This document shows positions 3,640 to 19,012 of a stretch of DNA of 23,334 bases, in pieces. The translations under genes and the position numbers were made by a program. The stretch lies in UHGV virus genome UHGV-0335559; one strand, written 5' to 3'. The first letter of the stretch is position 1. Each line of letters begins with the position of its first letter. The notes below the pieces were generated by a model, which worked only from the letters and a program-made list of their open reading frames with translations, had not been told where the DNA came from and searched no databases. This DNA is from a virus.

Positions 3640-3987
3640 TCAACTCATAGGGATGGTTAACGAAAGTGGCTGGCCGGTGTCGTTGTGCTGACCGGTTAAC
3701 GTGACCGTCATTCGCCCGTCAAAACTGCGCGCCGTGGTGACGGATGACAGGGTGACGCGGGGTTCCCATTTCAGCACGGCCATGTAACAGGCGACCTTAA
3801 TCTGCAACTCAAGCGCCGGGGTCTGCGGCTGGTCAATCATTGACGCCAGCAACGAGCCGTAATCACGACGCATCACCCGTGAGCCGACCGGTGTGCGCAG
3901 GATATCGCCGATACTCTGGCTGATATGCTCAAGGTCAGTGACAGTCAGGCCATCACTGCGATTCATTCCGAGATAACGCGCTGTCAT
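3640..3987 (-). CDS. W: Baseplate protein gpW (GPW/gp25 family)
   Basis: 115-aa ORF, length and position match P2 gpW. Confidence 0.9.
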   Translation of the reverse strand: MTARYLGMNRSDGLTVTDLEHISQSIGDILRTPVGSRVMRRDYGSLLASMIDQPQTPALELQIKVACYMAVLKWEPRVTLSSVTTARSFDGRMTVTLTGQHNDTGQPLSLTIPMS

Positions 3988-4619
3988 AGAGGACTCCCGG
4001 TTGTGCCGCCGCTGTCGCCGGGGTGTTTATGGGTATGCAGTACCTTACCGTTTGATGAGAGTTCACCGCCGGTGTGTTCAATGTTGCCGCGCATCGTCCC
4101 GCCCTTCTGCACTTCCAGCGTGCCGGTAATCAGCCTGTTGGTGCAGACCACCTCCGGTGTGTCCAGGGTGATGCGGGTTGATGCTTTCACCATGACCATC
4201 GGCACCGTGGCAGTAACAGAATCAGAAGCCGTCACGCTGGCCGTTTTAATTCCGCTTACCGTGAGTGCACTGGTTTCGGGTTCATACTCAATCACCGCCC
4301 CGTCAGGGAAACGGATATGCAGGGCATCCGCCGACGCAGACGGCGCGTGGTTATCGCCGGAATAAATCCCCGGCAGAACGAATGCCGTGTCGAGTTCACC
4401 GCCCACGGCCAGAATCAGCACCTGTTCCCCCACGGAAGGTGCCCACCATGTGCGCGAACGACCGGCGCGATGGGTCAGCCACTGAAGCCAGTCGGTGCAC
4501 ATGCCGCCGGTCTGCACACGGCAGCGACCGGCGTTAAGGTCGGTTTCGACGATAATGCCGGTGCGGATCATGTTACGCAGTGCGCGCGCGAGTTCCTGAA
4601 TATTTGCGAGAGTGTTCAT
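3984..4619 (-). CDS. V: Baseplate spike/assembly protein gpV
   Basis: 211-aa ORF, length and position match P2 gpV; overlaps W by 4 nt. Confidence 0.9.
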   Translation of the reverse strand: MNTLANIQELARALRNMIRTGIIVETDLNAGRCRVQTGGMCTDWLQWLTHRAGRSRTWWAPSVGEQVLILAVGGELDTAFVLPGIYSGDNHAPSASADALHIRFPDGAVIEYEPETSALTVSGIKTASVTASDSVTATVPMVMVKASTRITLDTPEVVCTNRLITGTLEVQKGGTMRGNIEHTGGELSSNGKVLHTHKHPGDSGGTTGSPL

Positions 4620-13954: not shown

Positions 13955-14959
13955 ATGGGCGCGGAGATTAATATTTTGGAAACTGATTTTAAAATAACCC
14001 TCGAAGGTTTCGCTACTGAGCAAGAAGCAAATAATATCGGTAATTTCACACTAGAAGCTATCCGAGCTTTAACAAAAAATCTCAATCTTGATATCTCCAA
14101 ATTAAAATGCGTGATTGTTTCCTATAACTTCAGTGAAGCTCTTCAAAAGGTAACATCCTCTTACCAACACAAATCCCCTAGTTCATTTACCAATAGCAAA
14201 CAGGGCGCAGCCGTCGGGCAGTTAGTAACAAAAATTGGCAATGATGGGCTATGTGAAGAATATACCCTTGTGCTATCGATTGATTTTTTTGTTGAGCTTT
14301 TCAATGATGGTAGCTTCTTAAAACTGAAAGAAGAAGGATACCTCGCAGTCATCCATCGCATTCACCATGAATTAGTGCACGTACATGAAAAAAACTTACT
14401 AACATGCTTAGCCCAAAACTTTACAGTCAACGAGTATGGTAGCGCGCTTCTTATCTCAGCCACGCGTGCATGGTCTGAATATCTCGCTAATTACATGTCT
14501 TCGGGGTCTGCCCCTCAAGAAACTATCGATTTATTTTTAGAGAATCTTGACACTGTTGTAAATGAAGTATCTGACGAGATTGAAAAACTCATCTGGGGTT
14601 ATAAGTACGGTAATATTTCTCTGAATGACATGTATCTTGAAGTAAAAAAACGTATCAGGCTAATCATCAACTCTTATGCTTATGCGATGGGTTATGTCCA
14701 TTCTCTAAACATCAATATTAAAGAATACGATCCAAAGCTATCCCTTACACTATCCAACTCAAAGATAAGATATCAATTATCAGAATTAGGCATTGCTTTT
14801 CAGAATCTTTATGGGAAGTTTAATGACCAGCACATTACAGGTTTTGGTGATTTTCGGGAGATAACAATAATCATTGATGAAATATTCAAGCAGTTTGGGC
14901 TTGTTTTAGAGTGTCCCGATTGGTCTGGCGACGGTGAACTCTACATACATGTAAATTAG
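13955..14959 (+). CDS. Hypothetical cargo protein, 334 aa, HExxH motif (IHRIHHELVHVHEKN); no recognisable family
   Basis: Long uninterrupted ORF in an island of about one-third G+C (flanking phage genes are well above 50%). Sits between the portal gene and cos, where P2 as I recall it has only about 100 bp. No Walker A, no TM segment, no HTH that I can see. Confidence 0.6.
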   Translation: MGAEINILETDFKITLEGFATEQEANNIGNFTLEAIRALTKNLNLDISKLKCVIVSYNFSEALQKVTSSYQHKSPSSFTNSKQGAAVGQLVTKIGNDGLCEEYTLVLSIDFFVELFNDGSFLKLKEEGYLAVIHRIHHELVHVHEKNLLTCLAQNFTVNEYGSALLISATRAWSEYLANYMSSGSAPQETIDLFLENLDTVVNEVSDEIEKLIWGYKYGNISLNDMYLEVKKRIRLIINSYAYAMGYVHSLNINIKEYDPKLSLTLSNSKIRYQLSELGIAFQNLYGKFNDQHITGFGDFREITIIIDEIFKQFGLVLECPDWSGDGELYIHVN

Positions 14960-15197: not shown

Positions 15198-15353
15198 TGC
15201 CCGCTTTATGGGGCGGTTTTAATGCAGTTGCATGACAACTCTGGATCCGCGCTAGCTCTGGCGGCGCACGGACAGAACGGGCAAGACTGACGCATGCAAA
15301 ACCATGCACCTAATGCATGCACGACTAAAAAACGGGAAATTCGCGGAAAAATG

Positions 15354-15390
15354 GCATAAAAAAACCGGCATTCAGGGTGCCGGTTTTAGT
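15354..15390. terminator. Bidirectional rho-independent terminator
   Basis: A-tract (15356-15364), 7-bp stem ACCGGCA (15364-15370) / TGCCGGT (15378-15384) with a 7-nt loop, then TTTT. U-runs follow the hairpin on both strands; it would end the minus-strand tum-like operon before cos. Confidence 0.55.
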
Positions 15391-15523
15391 CTGGTTTTGT
15401 CGCGATTAATGGCCGCGCAATGCGCCAATAACACTGTTGAGGCACATGCTGGCAACAATCATCAGAAAAATCGTCGTCCACGGATTTTCATAAACGATAG
15501 ATAACATATTTATATAGTTCCTC

Positions 15524-15808
15524 TTATTTGCGCATTCTGATGTGATTTAACAGGTGTTTGATAACGACTGATAGCTCATCTTTACCGGCCTGCTCGACCA
15601 TTTTTGCGGTGTAGCTTTCCACCTCGCGAGAGCTCAGGTCGTTATTTAAAGCCATTAAAGTCAGATTCTTTGCCCAATCGGCAAACGGGTCATTTTTCGA
15701 TGAAAGGGGATTTTGCATGTACAAAAACCTCGAATTATTTAACCAGCAGACGGTTGAAGTATTTGCGACGCTATGACCGGCTAACGCCTCGCGTAGCTCG
15801 TTGTTCAA
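15524..15808 (-). CDS. Hypothetical small protein (last gene of the SOS operon); start uncertain
   Basis: 94-aa ORF whose first codons lie inside repeat A. An internal Met at 15718 (MQNPLSSKND...) with GAGG upstream is the more likely start (64 aa). No recognisable family. Confidence 0.35.
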   Translation of the reverse strand: MNNELREALAGHSVANTSTVCWLNNSRFLYMQNPLSSKNDPFADWAKNLTLMALNNDLSSREVESYTAKMVEQAGKDELSVVIKHLLNHIRMRK

Positions 15809-15849
15809 CCCCGCCAGACCTGAAAGCGAGTTTCAGCTCCGGCGGCGTT
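15785..15849. repeat. 65-bp direct repeat, copy A (contains hairpin CTGAAA-GCGAG-TTTCAG)
   Basis: Aligns with 16190-16254 at roughly 85% identity, including identical blocks TTGTTCAACCCCGCCAG and CCGGCGGCGTT. Begins 2 nt after the stop of the 69-aa ORF on the minus strand. Confidence 0.75.
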
Positions 15850-15851
15850 AT

Positions 15852-16061
15852 CTATGGTCGACGTGGTGGCGGTGAGTAATGTGTCGGCTTGCTGATGCTA
15901 TCCAGCTTGCCGTAATTATCCCTGACTATTTCGGCACACCCGACCAGCTCGGCGGGTGTCAAATTCTCATTGACCATTATCTGCTGCAGACGATGAACGA
16001 TGGCCATCAGTTTGATGCTTTTAGTTTTGTGCTGCGGAATTTTGCCCGGTAGTCGATGCAT
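15852..16061 (-). CDS. Hypothetical 69-aa protein flanked by the two direct repeats
   Basis: ORF with GAGGG Shine-Dalgarno 7 nt upstream of the ATG at 16061. No recognisable family. Confidence 0.4.
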   Translation of the reverse strand: MHRLPGKIPQHKTKSIKLMAIVHRLQQIMVNENLTPAELVGCAEIVRDNYGKLDSISKPTHYSPPPRRP

Positions 16062-16189
16062 ATTATCGCCCTCAATGAATTTTATTTAGCGCTGCCACAG
16101 CGCCACTATAAAACCCGCTAAGGTAACGTCCCATTCATCACTGGTGTGTAACCAATAAAACATCGAGAAACTTTGAGAGGAAGAACTAG

Positions 16190-16254
16190 CGCCTCGCGGT
16201 GCGAGTTGTTCAACCCCGCCAGCACTGAAAGCAAGTTTCAGCACCGGCGGCGTT
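16190..16254. repeat. 65-bp direct repeat, copy B (contains hairpin CTGAAA-GCAAG-TTTCAG)
   Basis: Partner of 15785-15849; begins 2 nt after the stop of the DinI-like gene on the minus strand. Confidence 0.75.
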
Positions 16255-16256
16255 TG

Positions 16257-16490
16257 TTAATGCAGCCAGCTATCGTCCTCCCATACCTGCTGCATGATTT
16301 CCATTACTCGTTTTTTATCTTCGTCCAGTTTCAAACCGCTTAGTTCAACGCCATTAGCGGAGCCCTTGCGAATTCGGATAGCAGTCTTTGGGTAAATAGG
16401 TTGAAGATTGCGGTACAGTTCAGCCTCAAGTGCATCCAATGTTGCCTGACTAATTTTTTGCTCTTTATCCAACGTGATATTGATTCTCAT
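16257..16490 (-). CDS. DinI-like protein (DinI / 186 Tum C-terminal domain family)
   Basis: 77 aa, MRINITLDKEQKISQATLDALEAELYRNLQPIYP...VMEIMQQVWEDDSWLH; resembles E. coli DinI (MRIEVTIAK...ALAGELSRRIQ...) in pattern and length. Weak Shine-Dalgarno; the ATG is one codon after the in-frame stop of the upstream ORF. Confidence 0.75.
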   Translation of the reverse strand: MRINITLDKEQKISQATLDALEAELYRNLQPIYPKTAIRIRKGSANGVELSGLKLDEDKKRVMEIMQQVWEDDSWLH

Positions 16491-16493
16491 AAT

Positions 16494-16676
16494 CTAATCA
16501 GCCTTATAAAAATTATCATCTTCGGTTTCGTTATTTTCGCTGTTTGCTAGGTCTGCAATGAGAGTGAGCGCGAGCTTTAAGTCTGATGGCTTGCAGTTTG
16601 CAATCAGAGATACCTCGGCAATAAATTGCACACAAGCCCACTTTTGCTGCGTTCGGCTGAAATGTTCGCCAACCAT
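16494..16676 (-). CDS. Small protein, possible N-terminal (antirepressor) part of a Tum-like protein
   Basis: 60-aa ORF with strong Shine-Dalgarno (GGGAGGG) and a LexA box just upstream. Same reading frame as the DinI-like ORF, separated from it by a single TAG. Confidence 0.5.
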   Translation of the reverse strand: MVGEHFSRTQQKWACVQFIAEVSLIANCKPSDLKLALTLIADLANSENNETEDDNFYKAD

Positions 16677-16695
16677 GAAATCCCTCCCACAGGGT

Positions 16696-16715
16696 TACTG
16701 TATATTTATACAGTA
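16696..16715. promoter_or_regulatory. LexA box (SOS operator) overlapping the promoter of the tum/DinI-like operon
   Basis: TACTGTATATTTATACAGTA: CTGT (16698-16701), 8 nt, ACAG (16710-16713), one central mismatch to the consensus TACTGTATATATATACAGTA. Lies about 20 nt upstream of the start codon at 16676. Confidence 0.75.
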
Positions 16716-16789: not shown

Positions 16790-19012
16790 TTACCCATGTA
16801 TTGGTTTTGATGCTTCAGCCATCGCCGCAACACGATTAAGGATTTTCCGAGCTTTAGCCTCATGCGATGGTGCTGCGGAAAATATTTCTCCTTTGGCCGT
16901 TCCGCGTAGCCATTTACCATCAAAACAACTTTTACCACCGGCCATCAGGTGCAGGGCTTCGCCCCGGCTGATATTAATGCCGGTTGTCAGATGTATCTCA
17001 TCGATAGTTTTAGCTATAGCTGCGTTTTGCTCATCCGTTCCGTGGATGAATTTTCGCCGTGCTGCTGGCTTTTGCTTCCTGAGTCGGTTGGTCAATTCTC
17101 GTCTTTCACGCCGACTCAGTGGTTTTGTTAAATCCAGTATCGGTGGATCGCTTTCGCTTCCCGTACAGTTATTGACAGAACTCCGAGGGACGGCTTTGCC
17201 GTCCTGAAGGTCAACGGCCAAATCAACAGCACGCTTCGGAACAATCTTCCACTGAGTGAGCCGGGTTAAAATCGGGCTTCCTGCACCTATGGAGGAATCG
17301 TAGACCCCCTTAATACATACCGTTTCCTCACCGTACTGATTAAGCTCGGTGCGCGGTTCATACAGTGTGCGCACCTGTAAATCATCGCGACGGACAAACG
17401 GCCCACCCTGAGCATTAACATAACCAGCCCAGTCACCAGCGTCGGCGGCATCATGGACGGCGGCAAACTCAACGCTCAGACCGTGCGCGGTTTCGGTATC
17501 AGCGAGGCGACGCAACTCACGGTAAACCGTCACCGGCGCACCACCAATAAACTGAAACTGACGGATGTGCCAGCGCGCAGCCCATGCTGAAACGGCGGGG
17601 GCTGTCTCTTTCAGCAGCTCACCGCTTTCATCATCGGTTTCACCATCGAGAGCATAACCGTCGATATTTTTTGAAATGTATTTAGCAACATAGCCGGTTG
17701 CGCTGCCTTTCTCCGGGTCAATGGACTCGGCGTGGAAACGTGCTTTTTTGGATTTATCGCTTTTCAGTTCGTGGCGGTCTTCTTTCCATGCGTATTTACG
17801 GACGATGGAGCGAACATATTCAACATCTTCCGGCAGCATGAACATCAGCATGTGCCAGTGTGGAGTGCCGTCGTGATGGGGCTCGGCGACACGAATACCG
17901 AAAATACGGACATCTTCCCGATGTAGTTTGGCACGGATACGCGCCCAGATACCGGTTAGATAGTTTTGCGTGTCAGCCGGGCTGGCACCGCTCCATTTGC
18001 TGTTACGGTAACCGGCTTTAGTCGTGGCGTGATATTTTGACGGCGCGGTTAGAGTGTAAAACTCACCGACATAACCGAGCTCATTACAGATGTTTTCAAA
18101 CCCACGAATGCGGGTCATGAGCTCACAGCGGCGAATCGCAGGGTTAGCAACTGAGCCATCATATTTTTCAATTAGGCTGATACGGTTGCCGTCTTCGTCT
18201 TCGAGATCCAGACCTTTGAGAAATTCACGAGTGCGGCGCTTTTGTTCACGCCAGTCAGTCACGCAGTTTTTACTCGCGTAAGTGTTTTTTTTCTTACTGA
18301 CGTTGCCGACTGCAATTTGCAGGTGTTCGCGCCACGTAGCTGCAACACGGCGCAAACGACCGCGCCACCACCCATCGTTAAACATTTTGGCGATAGCCGG
18401 TGCGATTTCATCCGCACCGACATATTTTTTTTCAACCCGCTCCCAATGTGGTGGGATAACGTTGAATTGGAGGGAAATAAAGCCAGCACGAATATACCAG
18501 GTGTACAGCGTTTTAAGCTCGCCGAATCCGTGGTCATTAATGTTGGCAAGTTCACCACGAATGAAATTAGCAATATCAGCGGCCAACAGGTCAACATCAG
18601 CGCGCGACATGTCCGGGAGACGGTTATATTGGGCGACCATATTAACCATGCGTGACGACAGATATTGCATTTGCTGAGTATCAAAATGACTTCCAAAAAC
18701 AGCGGTTGATACCTTGCTGTTGATACCAGCGCATTCGTATTTTTTTGCGACCAGTTCAAGACGCGGCAATGCCTTTTTGCAGAAGCTGATTAAAAATGCA
18801 TTGGCTCGTTGACTACCCTGATTTTGCTCCAGCACCGCAGCAGTGCGATAAACATCTAACCGCACGCAGTCGGGCTGGAGAGAAAGCACCTTTTTTGCAT
18901 GCAGCAAAGCCGCGAACATACGGTCGCGGCGATGCTGTTGCTCATAAGTAAGGTATGGGCTGGAGATTGCCGACCGTGGGACGTTCCACGGATAAGCGAA
19001 TTGAACAGCCAA
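16790..19012 (-). CDS. A: Replication initiation endonuclease gpA (rolling-circle initiator)
   Basis: 740-aa ORF with HUH-type motif (EPHHDGTPHWHMLMF) and a tyrosine region (GYVAKYISKNIDGYALDG), as in the P2 A protein family. Confidence 0.9.
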   Translation of the reverse strand: MAVQFAYPWNVPRSAISSPYLTYEQQHRRDRMFAALLHAKKVLSLQPDCVRLDVYRTAAVLEQNQGSQRANAFLISFCKKALPRLELVAKKYECAGINSKVSTAVFGSHFDTQQMQYLSSRMVNMVAQYNRLPDMSRADVDLLAADIANFIRGELANINDHGFGELKTLYTWYIRAGFISLQFNVIPPHWERVEKKYVGADEIAPAIAKMFNDGWWRGRLRRVAATWREHLQIAVGNVSKKKNTYASKNCVTDWREQKRRTREFLKGLDLEDEDGNRISLIEKYDGSVANPAIRRCELMTRIRGFENICNELGYVGEFYTLTAPSKYHATTKAGYRNSKWSGASPADTQNYLTGIWARIRAKLHREDVRIFGIRVAEPHHDGTPHWHMLMFMLPEDVEYVRSIVRKYAWKEDRHELKSDKSKKARFHAESIDPEKGSATGYVAKYISKNIDGYALDGETDDESGELLKETAPAVSAWAARWHIRQFQFIGGAPVTVYRELRRLADTETAHGLSVEFAAVHDAADAGDWAGYVNAQGGPFVRRDDLQVRTLYEPRTELNQYGEETVCIKGVYDSSIGAGSPILTRLTQWKIVPKRAVDLAVDLQDGKAVPRSSVNNCTGSESDPPILDLTKPLSRRERRELTNRLRKQKPAARRKFIHGTDEQNAAIAKTIDEIHLTTGINISRGEALHLMAGGKSCFDGKWLRGTAKGEIFSAAPSHEAKARKILNRVAAMAEASKPIHG

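Follow-up and report, generated by a model that had tools for sequence, protein, structure and literature searches.

We analysed the virus genome UHGV-0335559 over a stretch of 23,334 nucleotides (nt), here called the window, which represents a 186/PSP3-type (Eganvirus-like) prophage of the P2 family. This report concerns a pair of direct repeats, copies A and B, in the early/SOS operon of this prophage, and the conserved structured element of which they are two examples. Read along the minus strand, the region consists of gene A, a LexA-box region, a TumA-like gene, a DinI/TumB-like gene, copy B, a 69-amino acid (aa) open reading frame (ORF) and copy A; a 65-aa ORF, a 33-aa ORF and a strong terminator follow downstream of copy A. 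The features needed for the argument are listed below; the bit scores are those obtained with a covariance model of the element, model R1.

16790-19012, minus strand: replication gene A.
17166-17187, minus strand: a sequence (CTCGGAGTTCTGTCAATAACTG) inside gene A, identical to the nick region of the 186/P2 A-protein origin.
16698-16713: a LexA-box-like perfect palindrome (CTGTATATTTATACAG), upstream of the TumA-like ORF and the SOS operon.
16494-16676, minus strand: a TumA-like 60-aa ORF, the first gene of the SOS operon.
16257-16490, minus strand: a DinI-family (TumB-like) 77-aa gene (Pfam DinI, E=7e-24).
16186-16254, minus strand: copy B, with hairpin 1 at 16212-16254 and the tail with mini-hairpin 2, in the Watson-Crick form CUCGC-ACC-GCGAG, at 16186-16211 (93.3 bits).
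15852-16061, minus strand: the bracketed 69-aa ORF, a homologue of PSP3 gp37 (phrog_11386).
15781-15849, minus strand: copy A, with hairpin 1 at 15807-15849 and the tail with mini-hairpin 2, in the tandem G.A form CGAGC-UAC-GCGAG, at 15781-15806 (90.8 bits).
15524-15721, minus strand: a 65-aa ORF (phrog_2454), downstream of copy A.
~15354-15390, minus strand: the actual intrinsic terminator of the operon, a GC hairpin followed by a T-run.

By analogy with phage 186, the palindrome would be the counterpart of the p95 SOS promoter/operator. The nick region lies on the same strand as the repeats; copy B is ~0.9 kb and copy A 1.3 kb downstream of it. Copy B begins 2 nt past the stop codon of the DinI-family gene and copy A 2 nt past that of the 69-aa ORF, as had been claimed in a reading of the sequence alone (the sequence-only reading). 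A 94-aa ORF (15524-15808) can also be read from a TTG inside the tail of copy A. The product of the 69-aa ORF is predicted to be a two-helix hairpin without a family match beyond phrog_11386, and it was discarded as an uninformative clue to function.

A repeat search of the window revealed one repeat family, consisting of two direct 69-nt copies that are 87% identical and 405 nt apart. The two 65-bp direct repeats that the sequence-only reading had placed at 15785-15849 and 16190-16254 both fall inside these copies. The 17-mer TTGTTCAACCCCGCCAG has exactly two occurrences in the window, where 0.06 matches were expected at ≤3 mismatches, and two occurrences were reached in none of 100 shuffles. 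The repeat search and the shuffle test rule out a chance or low-complexity repeat.

The element spans ~72 nt and consists of an imperfect hairpin of 19-20 bp followed by a nearly invariant 26-nt tail. It starts with a conserved TRR triplet, in most cases the stop codon that ends the upstream ORF, and 2 nt separate this triplet from hairpin 1. On the operon-sense strand hairpin 1 reads AAC-g-CCGCCGGUGCUGAAA [CUYGY] UUUCAGUGCUGGCGG-g-GUU, so that the hairpin noted earlier, CTGAAA-N5-TTTCAG with an outer stem, extends to the full 19-20 bp. The consensus of the tail is GAACAACGAGC-NNN-GCGAGGCGTTAG, and its form on the operon-sense strand is GAACAACGAGC-NNN-GCGAGGCGUUAG. Folded as RNA, the operon-sense strand gave -38 kcal/mol (z about -4); folded as DNA, the sense strand of the window copies gave -21 to -24 kcal/mol (z -4 to -6). 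DNA folding energies were -20 to -24 kcal/mol for the sense strand, compared with -13 to -16 kcal/mol for the antisense strand.

Covariation was analysed in 84 distinct aligned copies (alignment A3). Across the 18 pairs of hairpin 1, 95% of the cells were paired, whereas slid-register controls reached ~40%. Changes on both sides were observed at 13 of the 18 pairs, and the number of doubly changed cells (85, against 14 expected) was not attained in any of 500 shuffles. In distant copies the entire sequence of the stem was replaced and the pairing was retained. The non-Watson-Crick cells on the operon-sense strand comprised 188 G.U versus 29 C.A, and the sense strand was favoured in 73 of the 84 sequences. 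From the asymmetry between G.U and C.A it can be deduced that the fold is selected on the operon-sense strand only. The tail contains a second helix, mini-hairpin 2 (C-GA-GC / GC-GA-G), of 5 bp with a fully free 3-nt loop, for which 30 different triplets were found. Its tandem G.A pairs are replaced by U-A and C-G in 13 copies, including copy B of the window, and in a copy from a Pseudomonas plasmid a G-C pair is flipped to C-G, a compensatory change. A closing stem between the ends of the element (AACGCC/GGCGTT) was rejected; it lacks covariation support, and position 11 covaries with its partner in the hairpin. A pseudoknot between loop and tail (CUCGC with GCGAG) showed one striking double change (L047) and several disruptions, and we consider that it is not adopted because it would compete with the better-supported mini-hairpin 2.

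These results bear on what the repeats are. The free 3-nt loop, the change of GAG to UCG that restores pairing, and the differing flanks argue against a coding-sequence origin of the similarity between phage elements, which was rejected; conserved coding sequence, the first of two explanations that would have emptied the earlier observation of interest, does not account for it. Like an intrinsic terminator, the element has a GC-rich hairpin, with its stem of 19-20 bp, but no U/T-tract follows either copy; GAACAACGAGC comes directly after the stem, and a terminator scan found nothing at either copy. The view that the repeats are not classical terminators was thus correct, the terminator being the one at ~15354-15390. 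No Rfam family matched the window at the gathering threshold, and noise alone was found at E≤10 for positions 15300-16700. We conclude that the repeats are two paralogous copies of a conserved, non-coding, structured cis element of P2/186-family phages, and that this element appears to be a previously unannotated structured family that is absent from Rfam. The proposal of a structured element on the operon strand was borne out by the fold, its strand specificity and the compensatory changes; the element may act as RNA, as named in that proposal, or as single-stranded DNA.

In Enterobacterales, P2/186/PSP3-like phages and prophages together carry more than 150 distinct variants of the element. 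Pattern scans detected it in more than 120 viral contigs and in the genomes of ~35 Enterobacterales species, the host genera including Citrobacter, Enterobacter, the Klebsiella group, Pantoea, Serratia, Erwinia, Mixta and others. The window copies belong to it both by score (91-93 bits with model R1) and by their shared gene context. The Salmonella phages SW9, SI22, SEN1 and PSP3 have the same two-copy layout, the bracketed ORF being gp37 in PSP3. In phage 186 the one copy present follows orf97 directly, and the mapped terminator t95b comes 25 nt after it. Overall, ~85% of the loci have one copy. In Escherichia coli, 452 of 5426 complete genomes carry the element (83-87% identical, median 1 and maximum 2 copies), and all contexts examined were P2-type prophages, including P2-like prophages on IncC plasmids. 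The second deflating explanation, a widespread host intergenic repeat, does not agree with this distribution, and a miniature inverted-repeat transposable element (MITE) was rejected because the element is not dispersed in enterobacterial genomes.

The gene order in P2-type prophages is A, DUF3850 (orf91-like), a small ORF, the element, variable genes, and the portal gene Q. The element is located at the left edge of the 'TO', or tin-old, defence hotspot, and nothing is annotated at its position in the GenBank records AM157368 and AM157369, which stem from the 2004 and 2006 sequencing studies of this region. Neither the element nor the gp37-like ORF is present in canonical P2 (L208, NC_001895, 30316-31445), where a shortened orf91 is followed directly by the AT-rich tin/old genes on the opposite strand. 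Canonical P2 has lost both of them to the insertion of tin/old. Since both are absent, the laboratory reference P2 is atypical for this junction.

The ORF that ends at the element was surveyed for 146 copies. Four families were found, gp37-like (58 copies), DinI/Tum (35), Orf97-like (33) and a 66-aa ORF (4), and in 86 of the 146 copies the stop codon lies exactly 5 nt before the AAC. Past GTTAG, the next 300 nt sort into 26 unrelated clusters; many are AT-rich, with new genes that start within 20-40 nt. The 65-aa ORF of the window (phrog_2454) is a member of one among at least 26 such alternative modules, and a single downstream cluster was found joined to all four upstream families. The element sits exactly where variable cargo begins, right after the last conserved gene of the rightward early/SOS operon.

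Copy number at this junction is related to the gp37-like ORF. In all relatives, P2-type prophages included, this ORF has its own element copy immediately downstream, and in P2-EC67 the ORF and its element are displaced together behind an extra gene. The small ORF ahead of the element in P2-type prophages is a homologue of the 69-aa ORF of the window, so that gp37-like ORF and element form a constant pair. Hence the window has two copies: a gp37-like ORF carrying its own copy lies behind a DinI gene that also ends in one. All of the ~19 two-copy loci have a spacing of ~405 nt, and this identical spacing indicates that they all bracket the same ORF. The duplication must be old, since the B-type copies and the A-type copies each form a conserved lineage of their own. 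At the end of the gp37-like ORF, ~20 nt (PPPRR-stop; 15855-15875 in the window, and also in L005 and L130) are conserved at the nucleotide level, and the C-terminal region of the protein that precedes them is variable; judged by these sequences, the element may reach further 5' than the stop codon in the gp37-linked copies.

The relatives were compared for presence or absence of the bracketed ORF, and both states were found. Locus L096 matches the window exactly as far as the DinI gene and the initial 11 nt of copy B, where it switches to copy A and the ORF downstream of that copy. What it lacks relative to the window is one repeat body together with the bracketed ORF, and the breakpoint falls inside the repeat. 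The element has been used at least once as a crossover joint, a role for which it is placed as the sole conserved sequence at the junction. The idea that the repeats delimit an inserted cassette is supported in part, by the relatives with and without the ORF and by L096. A phage normally carries a single copy. Clark et al. in 2001 reportedly described boundary or linker sequences at module junctions of mosaic lambdoid phages. The element resembles these as a short conserved junction sequence that serves as a joint for homologous recombination, with L096 as a direct example. It differs from them in being under selection for a strand-specific fold and in being shared with plasmids, and is more than passive homology.

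Relatives outside the phages were searched with the tail alone, in one genome per species. Tail matches in Gemmatimonadaceae and Muribaculaceae were coding coincidences (NELGEAL / NERSEAL) and were discarded. Copies with both hairpin and tail were found on a Kushneria plasmid, on a 3.7-kb plasmid deposited under Streptomyces, on the Pseudomonas plasmid pBYT5-6, on several metagenomic plasmids of 2.8-4.6 kb, and in a ~302-nt repeat family of one Acidobacteria genome. These non-phage copies align end to end with the phage-derived covariance model, with 24-37 bits and E values of 1e-5 to 1e-9; RepL, ColE2-like and MOBQ plasmids are represented among the carriers. The replication proteins of the carriers differ (RepL; ColE2-type Replicase/PriCT), and so do their relaxases (MobA_MobL, Relaxase PF03432, Mob_Pre-like, or none); no relaxase is present in the phages, the Kushneria plasmid or pBYT5-6. 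In the plasmids the element is located in the intergenic origin/mob region. In L195 its position is immediately 3' to a ColE2-like ori motif, and in both L195 and L196 it is just upstream of mobC-relaxase; in L188 it lies in the gap of ~100 nt that separates the divergent genes for the MobA/MobL relaxase and a MobC-like protein. In RepL plasmids it is found 300-550 nt upstream of rep, on the same strand.

Some of these carriers have features of their own. The contig of Kushneria phyllosphaerae (L163, period 3751 nt) resembles a tandemly assembled 3.75-kb plasmid; it shows iteron-like 24-nt repeats, a sar-RNA-like Rfam match, and a 146-aa ORF flanked by two inverted copies of the element, which lie ~1 kb from each other. 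The contigs labelled Streptomyces hayashii (L166) and Streptomyces hilarionis (L179) are identical, 3731 nt long, and encode a Mob_Pre-like relaxase and a small Rep; because they have the appearance of a small plasmid of Gram-negative type, they may be assembly contamination. In the Acidobacteria metagenome-assembled genome (MAG) p16x33bins.48 (L144 1-530, L150, L140, L132) there is a ~302-nt repeat family whose copies are 90% identical, occur in either orientation on many contigs and frequently stand in tandem pairs; they carry a GC hairpin and the identical tail, TGAACAACGAGCGGAGCGAGGCGTTAG. The E. coli plasmid pDETEC52 (L204, 3150-3223, minus strand) has a diverged 26-bit match to the model right after the stop codon of a small hypothetical ORF, and its tail contains a GCGAAGC mini-hairpin. 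Judged by this sequence, a ColE2-like plasmid of enterobacteria may harbour a distant relative.

Concerning function, we tentatively favour the interpretation that this conserved cis element acts as a putative accessory single-strand replication signal of the single-strand initiation (ssi) type, a statement to which, taken whole and with its demonstrated part included, we give somewhat less than an even chance. A host factor would read the element as folded single-stranded nucleic acid, most likely in the DNA strand that rolling-circle replication displaces, and its putative role would be that of an accessory, non-essential ssi-like initiation or strand-handling signal. The element would at the same time double as the crossover joint between modules. 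Because the nick is on the same strand and 0.9-1.3 kb upstream, rolling-circle replication would expose the element early and in the folding polarity. This early single-stranded exposure, together with the origin-proximal plasmid copies, is the reason for our preference, and the independence of the element from the carrier replicon's own proteins suggests a host-read signal.

A precedent is found in small plasmids of the pHW126/pIGRK group, which have an 'ssi-like palindrome + ~20-bp conserved region' upstream of rep; this region is non-essential, its deletion leads to multimers, and the Rahnella study tentatively grouped the family with pSN2-like plasmids (PMC6854812; bioRxiv 10.1101/2022.12.05.519187). 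As in ssi signals and the pHW126/pIGRK region, the fold is strand specific, would lie on the displaced strand near an origin, and is independent of the Rep type. Likened by description, the pHW126/pIGRK region is also a non-essential accessory built of a hairpin and a short conserved stretch (PMC6854812). The evidence that the element could be an ssi signal is positional (on the nick strand 0.9-1.3 kb downstream, and origin-proximal in plasmids). A duplicate of the A-protein origin was rejected, the tail being unlike the nick sequence TCGGAGTYCTGTCAA.

Several observations weigh against a replication signal. The complementary-strand origin of G4 (G4 3860-4030, read directly) shows no similarity to the tail; that origin, oric, has three hairpins and a CTG start 3' of stem-loop I. 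Canonical P2, which lacks the element, replicates well and grows normally, so that any replication role must be dispensable. Two copies 405 nt apart make no obvious sense for replication, and the strict spacing from the stop codon and the G.U-rich stem suit a role in RNA equally well. The multi-copy ~302-nt repeats of Acidobacteria, with the same tail, are unexplained by a priming-site model. Furthermore, among the enterobacterial ColE2-like plasmids examined the exact tail motif was absent, the match in pDETEC52 being a diverged one, and three small RepL-related plasmids of E. coli/Klebsiella, of pIGRK-like size, had neither the tail motif nor anything significant.

The main alternative is an RNA element in the 3' untranslated or intercistronic region of the early/SOS operon, either an RNase III-type processing site or a barrier to 3' exonucleases. 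The hairpin, formed on the mRNA directly past the terminating ribosome, would set the stability of the upstream cistron and shield the expression of the cargo from read-through of the operon. We consider this rather unlikely. In its favour, the element is always co-oriented with and abuts the upstream ORF, with the TRR triplet 5 nt before the stem; the G.U wobbles are on the mRNA-sense strand; the near-continuous helix of 19-20 bp reaches -38 kcal/mol with a z of about -4; and in phage 186 the element is inside a mapped transcript, between orf97 and t95b. The RNase III hairpins of the T7 intercistronic sites and lambda sib are similar in having a mismatched helix of ~20 bp between or after genes without a U-tract, and the element roughly attains the ~20 bp or more of dsRNA expected of such a site; they differ in that the element has a 26-nt conserved tail and intergenic copies in plasmids. 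Repetitive extragenic palindromic sequences and bacterial interspersed mosaic elements (REP/BIME) are likewise imperfect GC-rich palindromes right after stop codons inside operons, with possible interactions in mRNA stability or with gyrase or polymerase; unlike them, the element is not dispersed in the host chromosome, and its sequence is unrelated to the REP consensus. The plasmid copies are not tied to the ends of ORFs, as revealed by L188, with its copy between divergent genes, and by the RepL plasmids, with theirs 300-550 nt upstream of rep. In addition, phage 186 has a true terminator 25 nt further on, which makes a protector of the 3' end redundant there; stability hairpins do not usually have a 26-nt tail that is invariant across distant taxa; and there is no Rfam match even at E≤10. 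A role in RNA accounts for the spacing from the stop codon and not for the plasmid contexts.

A broader proposal, which we regard as improbable, is that the hairpin and the 26-nt tail form a portable cross-replicon module, read in single-stranded form by a conserved host or mobile protein. Such a module would anchor the tin/old hotspot through structure-directed, integron-like or replication-coupled exchange or capture of cargo, rather than through homology of flanking genes. It would span the P2-family phages, the small plasmids of Pseudomonas, Halomonadaceae and uncultured bacteria, and the repeats of the Acidobacteria MAG.

Site-specific recombination of the type seen at integron attC sites is very unlikely in our estimate. 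Here a recombinase would recognise the folded strand with its AAC...GTT ends, cargo would enter precisely after GTTAG, and an ORF with its element would be a cassette. More than 20 unrelated cargos do begin within a few nt of GTTAG, same-orientation copies bracket an ORF whose presence is polymorphic, the stop codon of this ORF directly adjoins the site, and AAC/GTT closes the hairpin. GTTGAAC also fits the R' consensus of attC, GTTRRRY, and on the Kushneria plasmid two copies in inverted orientation, ~1 kb apart, enclose an ORF. The likeness to attC extends to an imperfect palindrome whose structure and not sequence is conserved, to strand specificity, to the AAC...GTT ends, and to a position closely following a cassette ORF, with direct copies bracketing an ORF. 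Nevertheless, no dedicated recombinase was identified; IntI is not annotated in the related phage records, in which no explicit IntI search was made. Most cargos have no second copy at the far end, with 1 copy in ~85% of loci; no arrays of sites are formed, and cargo is not closed by a second site. The bracketed gene is always the same gp37-like ORF, and the crossover in L096, in an 11-nt identical stretch, is explained equally by homologous recombination. The 5' box, (A/G)(G/A)CAAAC or AGAGAAC, fits RYYYAAC only in AAC and is not complementary to the 3' box, the long invariant tail is absent from attC sites, and the covariation backs a simple hairpin and not an R''/R' closing stem.

It is highly improbable that the element is an orphan mimic of an origin of transfer (oriT), in which hairpin and tail would form the binding and nick site of a conjugative relaxase, so that small plasmids and even the DNA of P2-like prophages could be carried along in conjugation. 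HUH relaxase sites do have this architecture, with an inverted repeat ahead of a conserved single-stranded stretch, and copies lie between divergent mob genes in L188 and upstream of mobC-relaxase in L195/L196. However, nic sequences are specific to a relaxase family, and the carriers encode three such families or none; the two copies on the Kushneria plasmid are inverted, and the phages have no relaxase. Furthermore, the tail is not known to resemble the nic regions of RSF1010, RP4, F, R388 and pMV158. A Tn3-family inverted repeat (GGGG...ACGYTAAG) was dismissed, the GGGG not being conserved in the plasmid copies, and no convincing match by eye was found to XerCD/dif, integration host factor (IHF), P2 and 186 Int arm sites, P4 alpha iterons or boxA.

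In P2-like phages, the interval from gene A to the portal gene is among the best-known reservoirs of anti-phage defence systems. Nilsson et al. in 2004 and Odegrip et al. in 2006 reportedly sequenced the 'TO region'. In two recent large studies the mechanism of the rapid turnover of cargo at the P2 hotspot is stated to be unknown, and cos ends or homology of flanking genes are invoked (PMC9122126; PMC13586616). Term searches of PMC9122126 and PMC13586616 found no mention of a repeat, hairpin or conserved intergenic element at the boundary, and the earlier papers on sequencing of the TO region may mention one. A strand-specific 72-nt element at the boundary of the hotspot, with at least one crossover inside it and relatives in plasmid origin regions, gives a testable handle on the movement of defence cassettes, and it can be used to delimit the hotspot in annotation pipelines. 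It is possibly an unrecognised replication or RNA-processing signal in a classic family of model phages, and it provides a ready-made covariance model for a family absent from Rfam.

Two further ORFs of the window were noted. Just ahead of the operon terminator, positions 15406-15507 of the minus strand encode a strongly hydrophobic 33-aa ORF (MLSIVYENPWTTIFLMIVASMCLNSVIGALRGH), which had no Pfam or PHROG match and, judging from its sequence, could encode a toxin or a small membrane peptide. A 334-aa ORF (phrog_11743; 13955-14959, plus strand), situated between the portal gene and the cos region, is probably cargo on the other side of cos.

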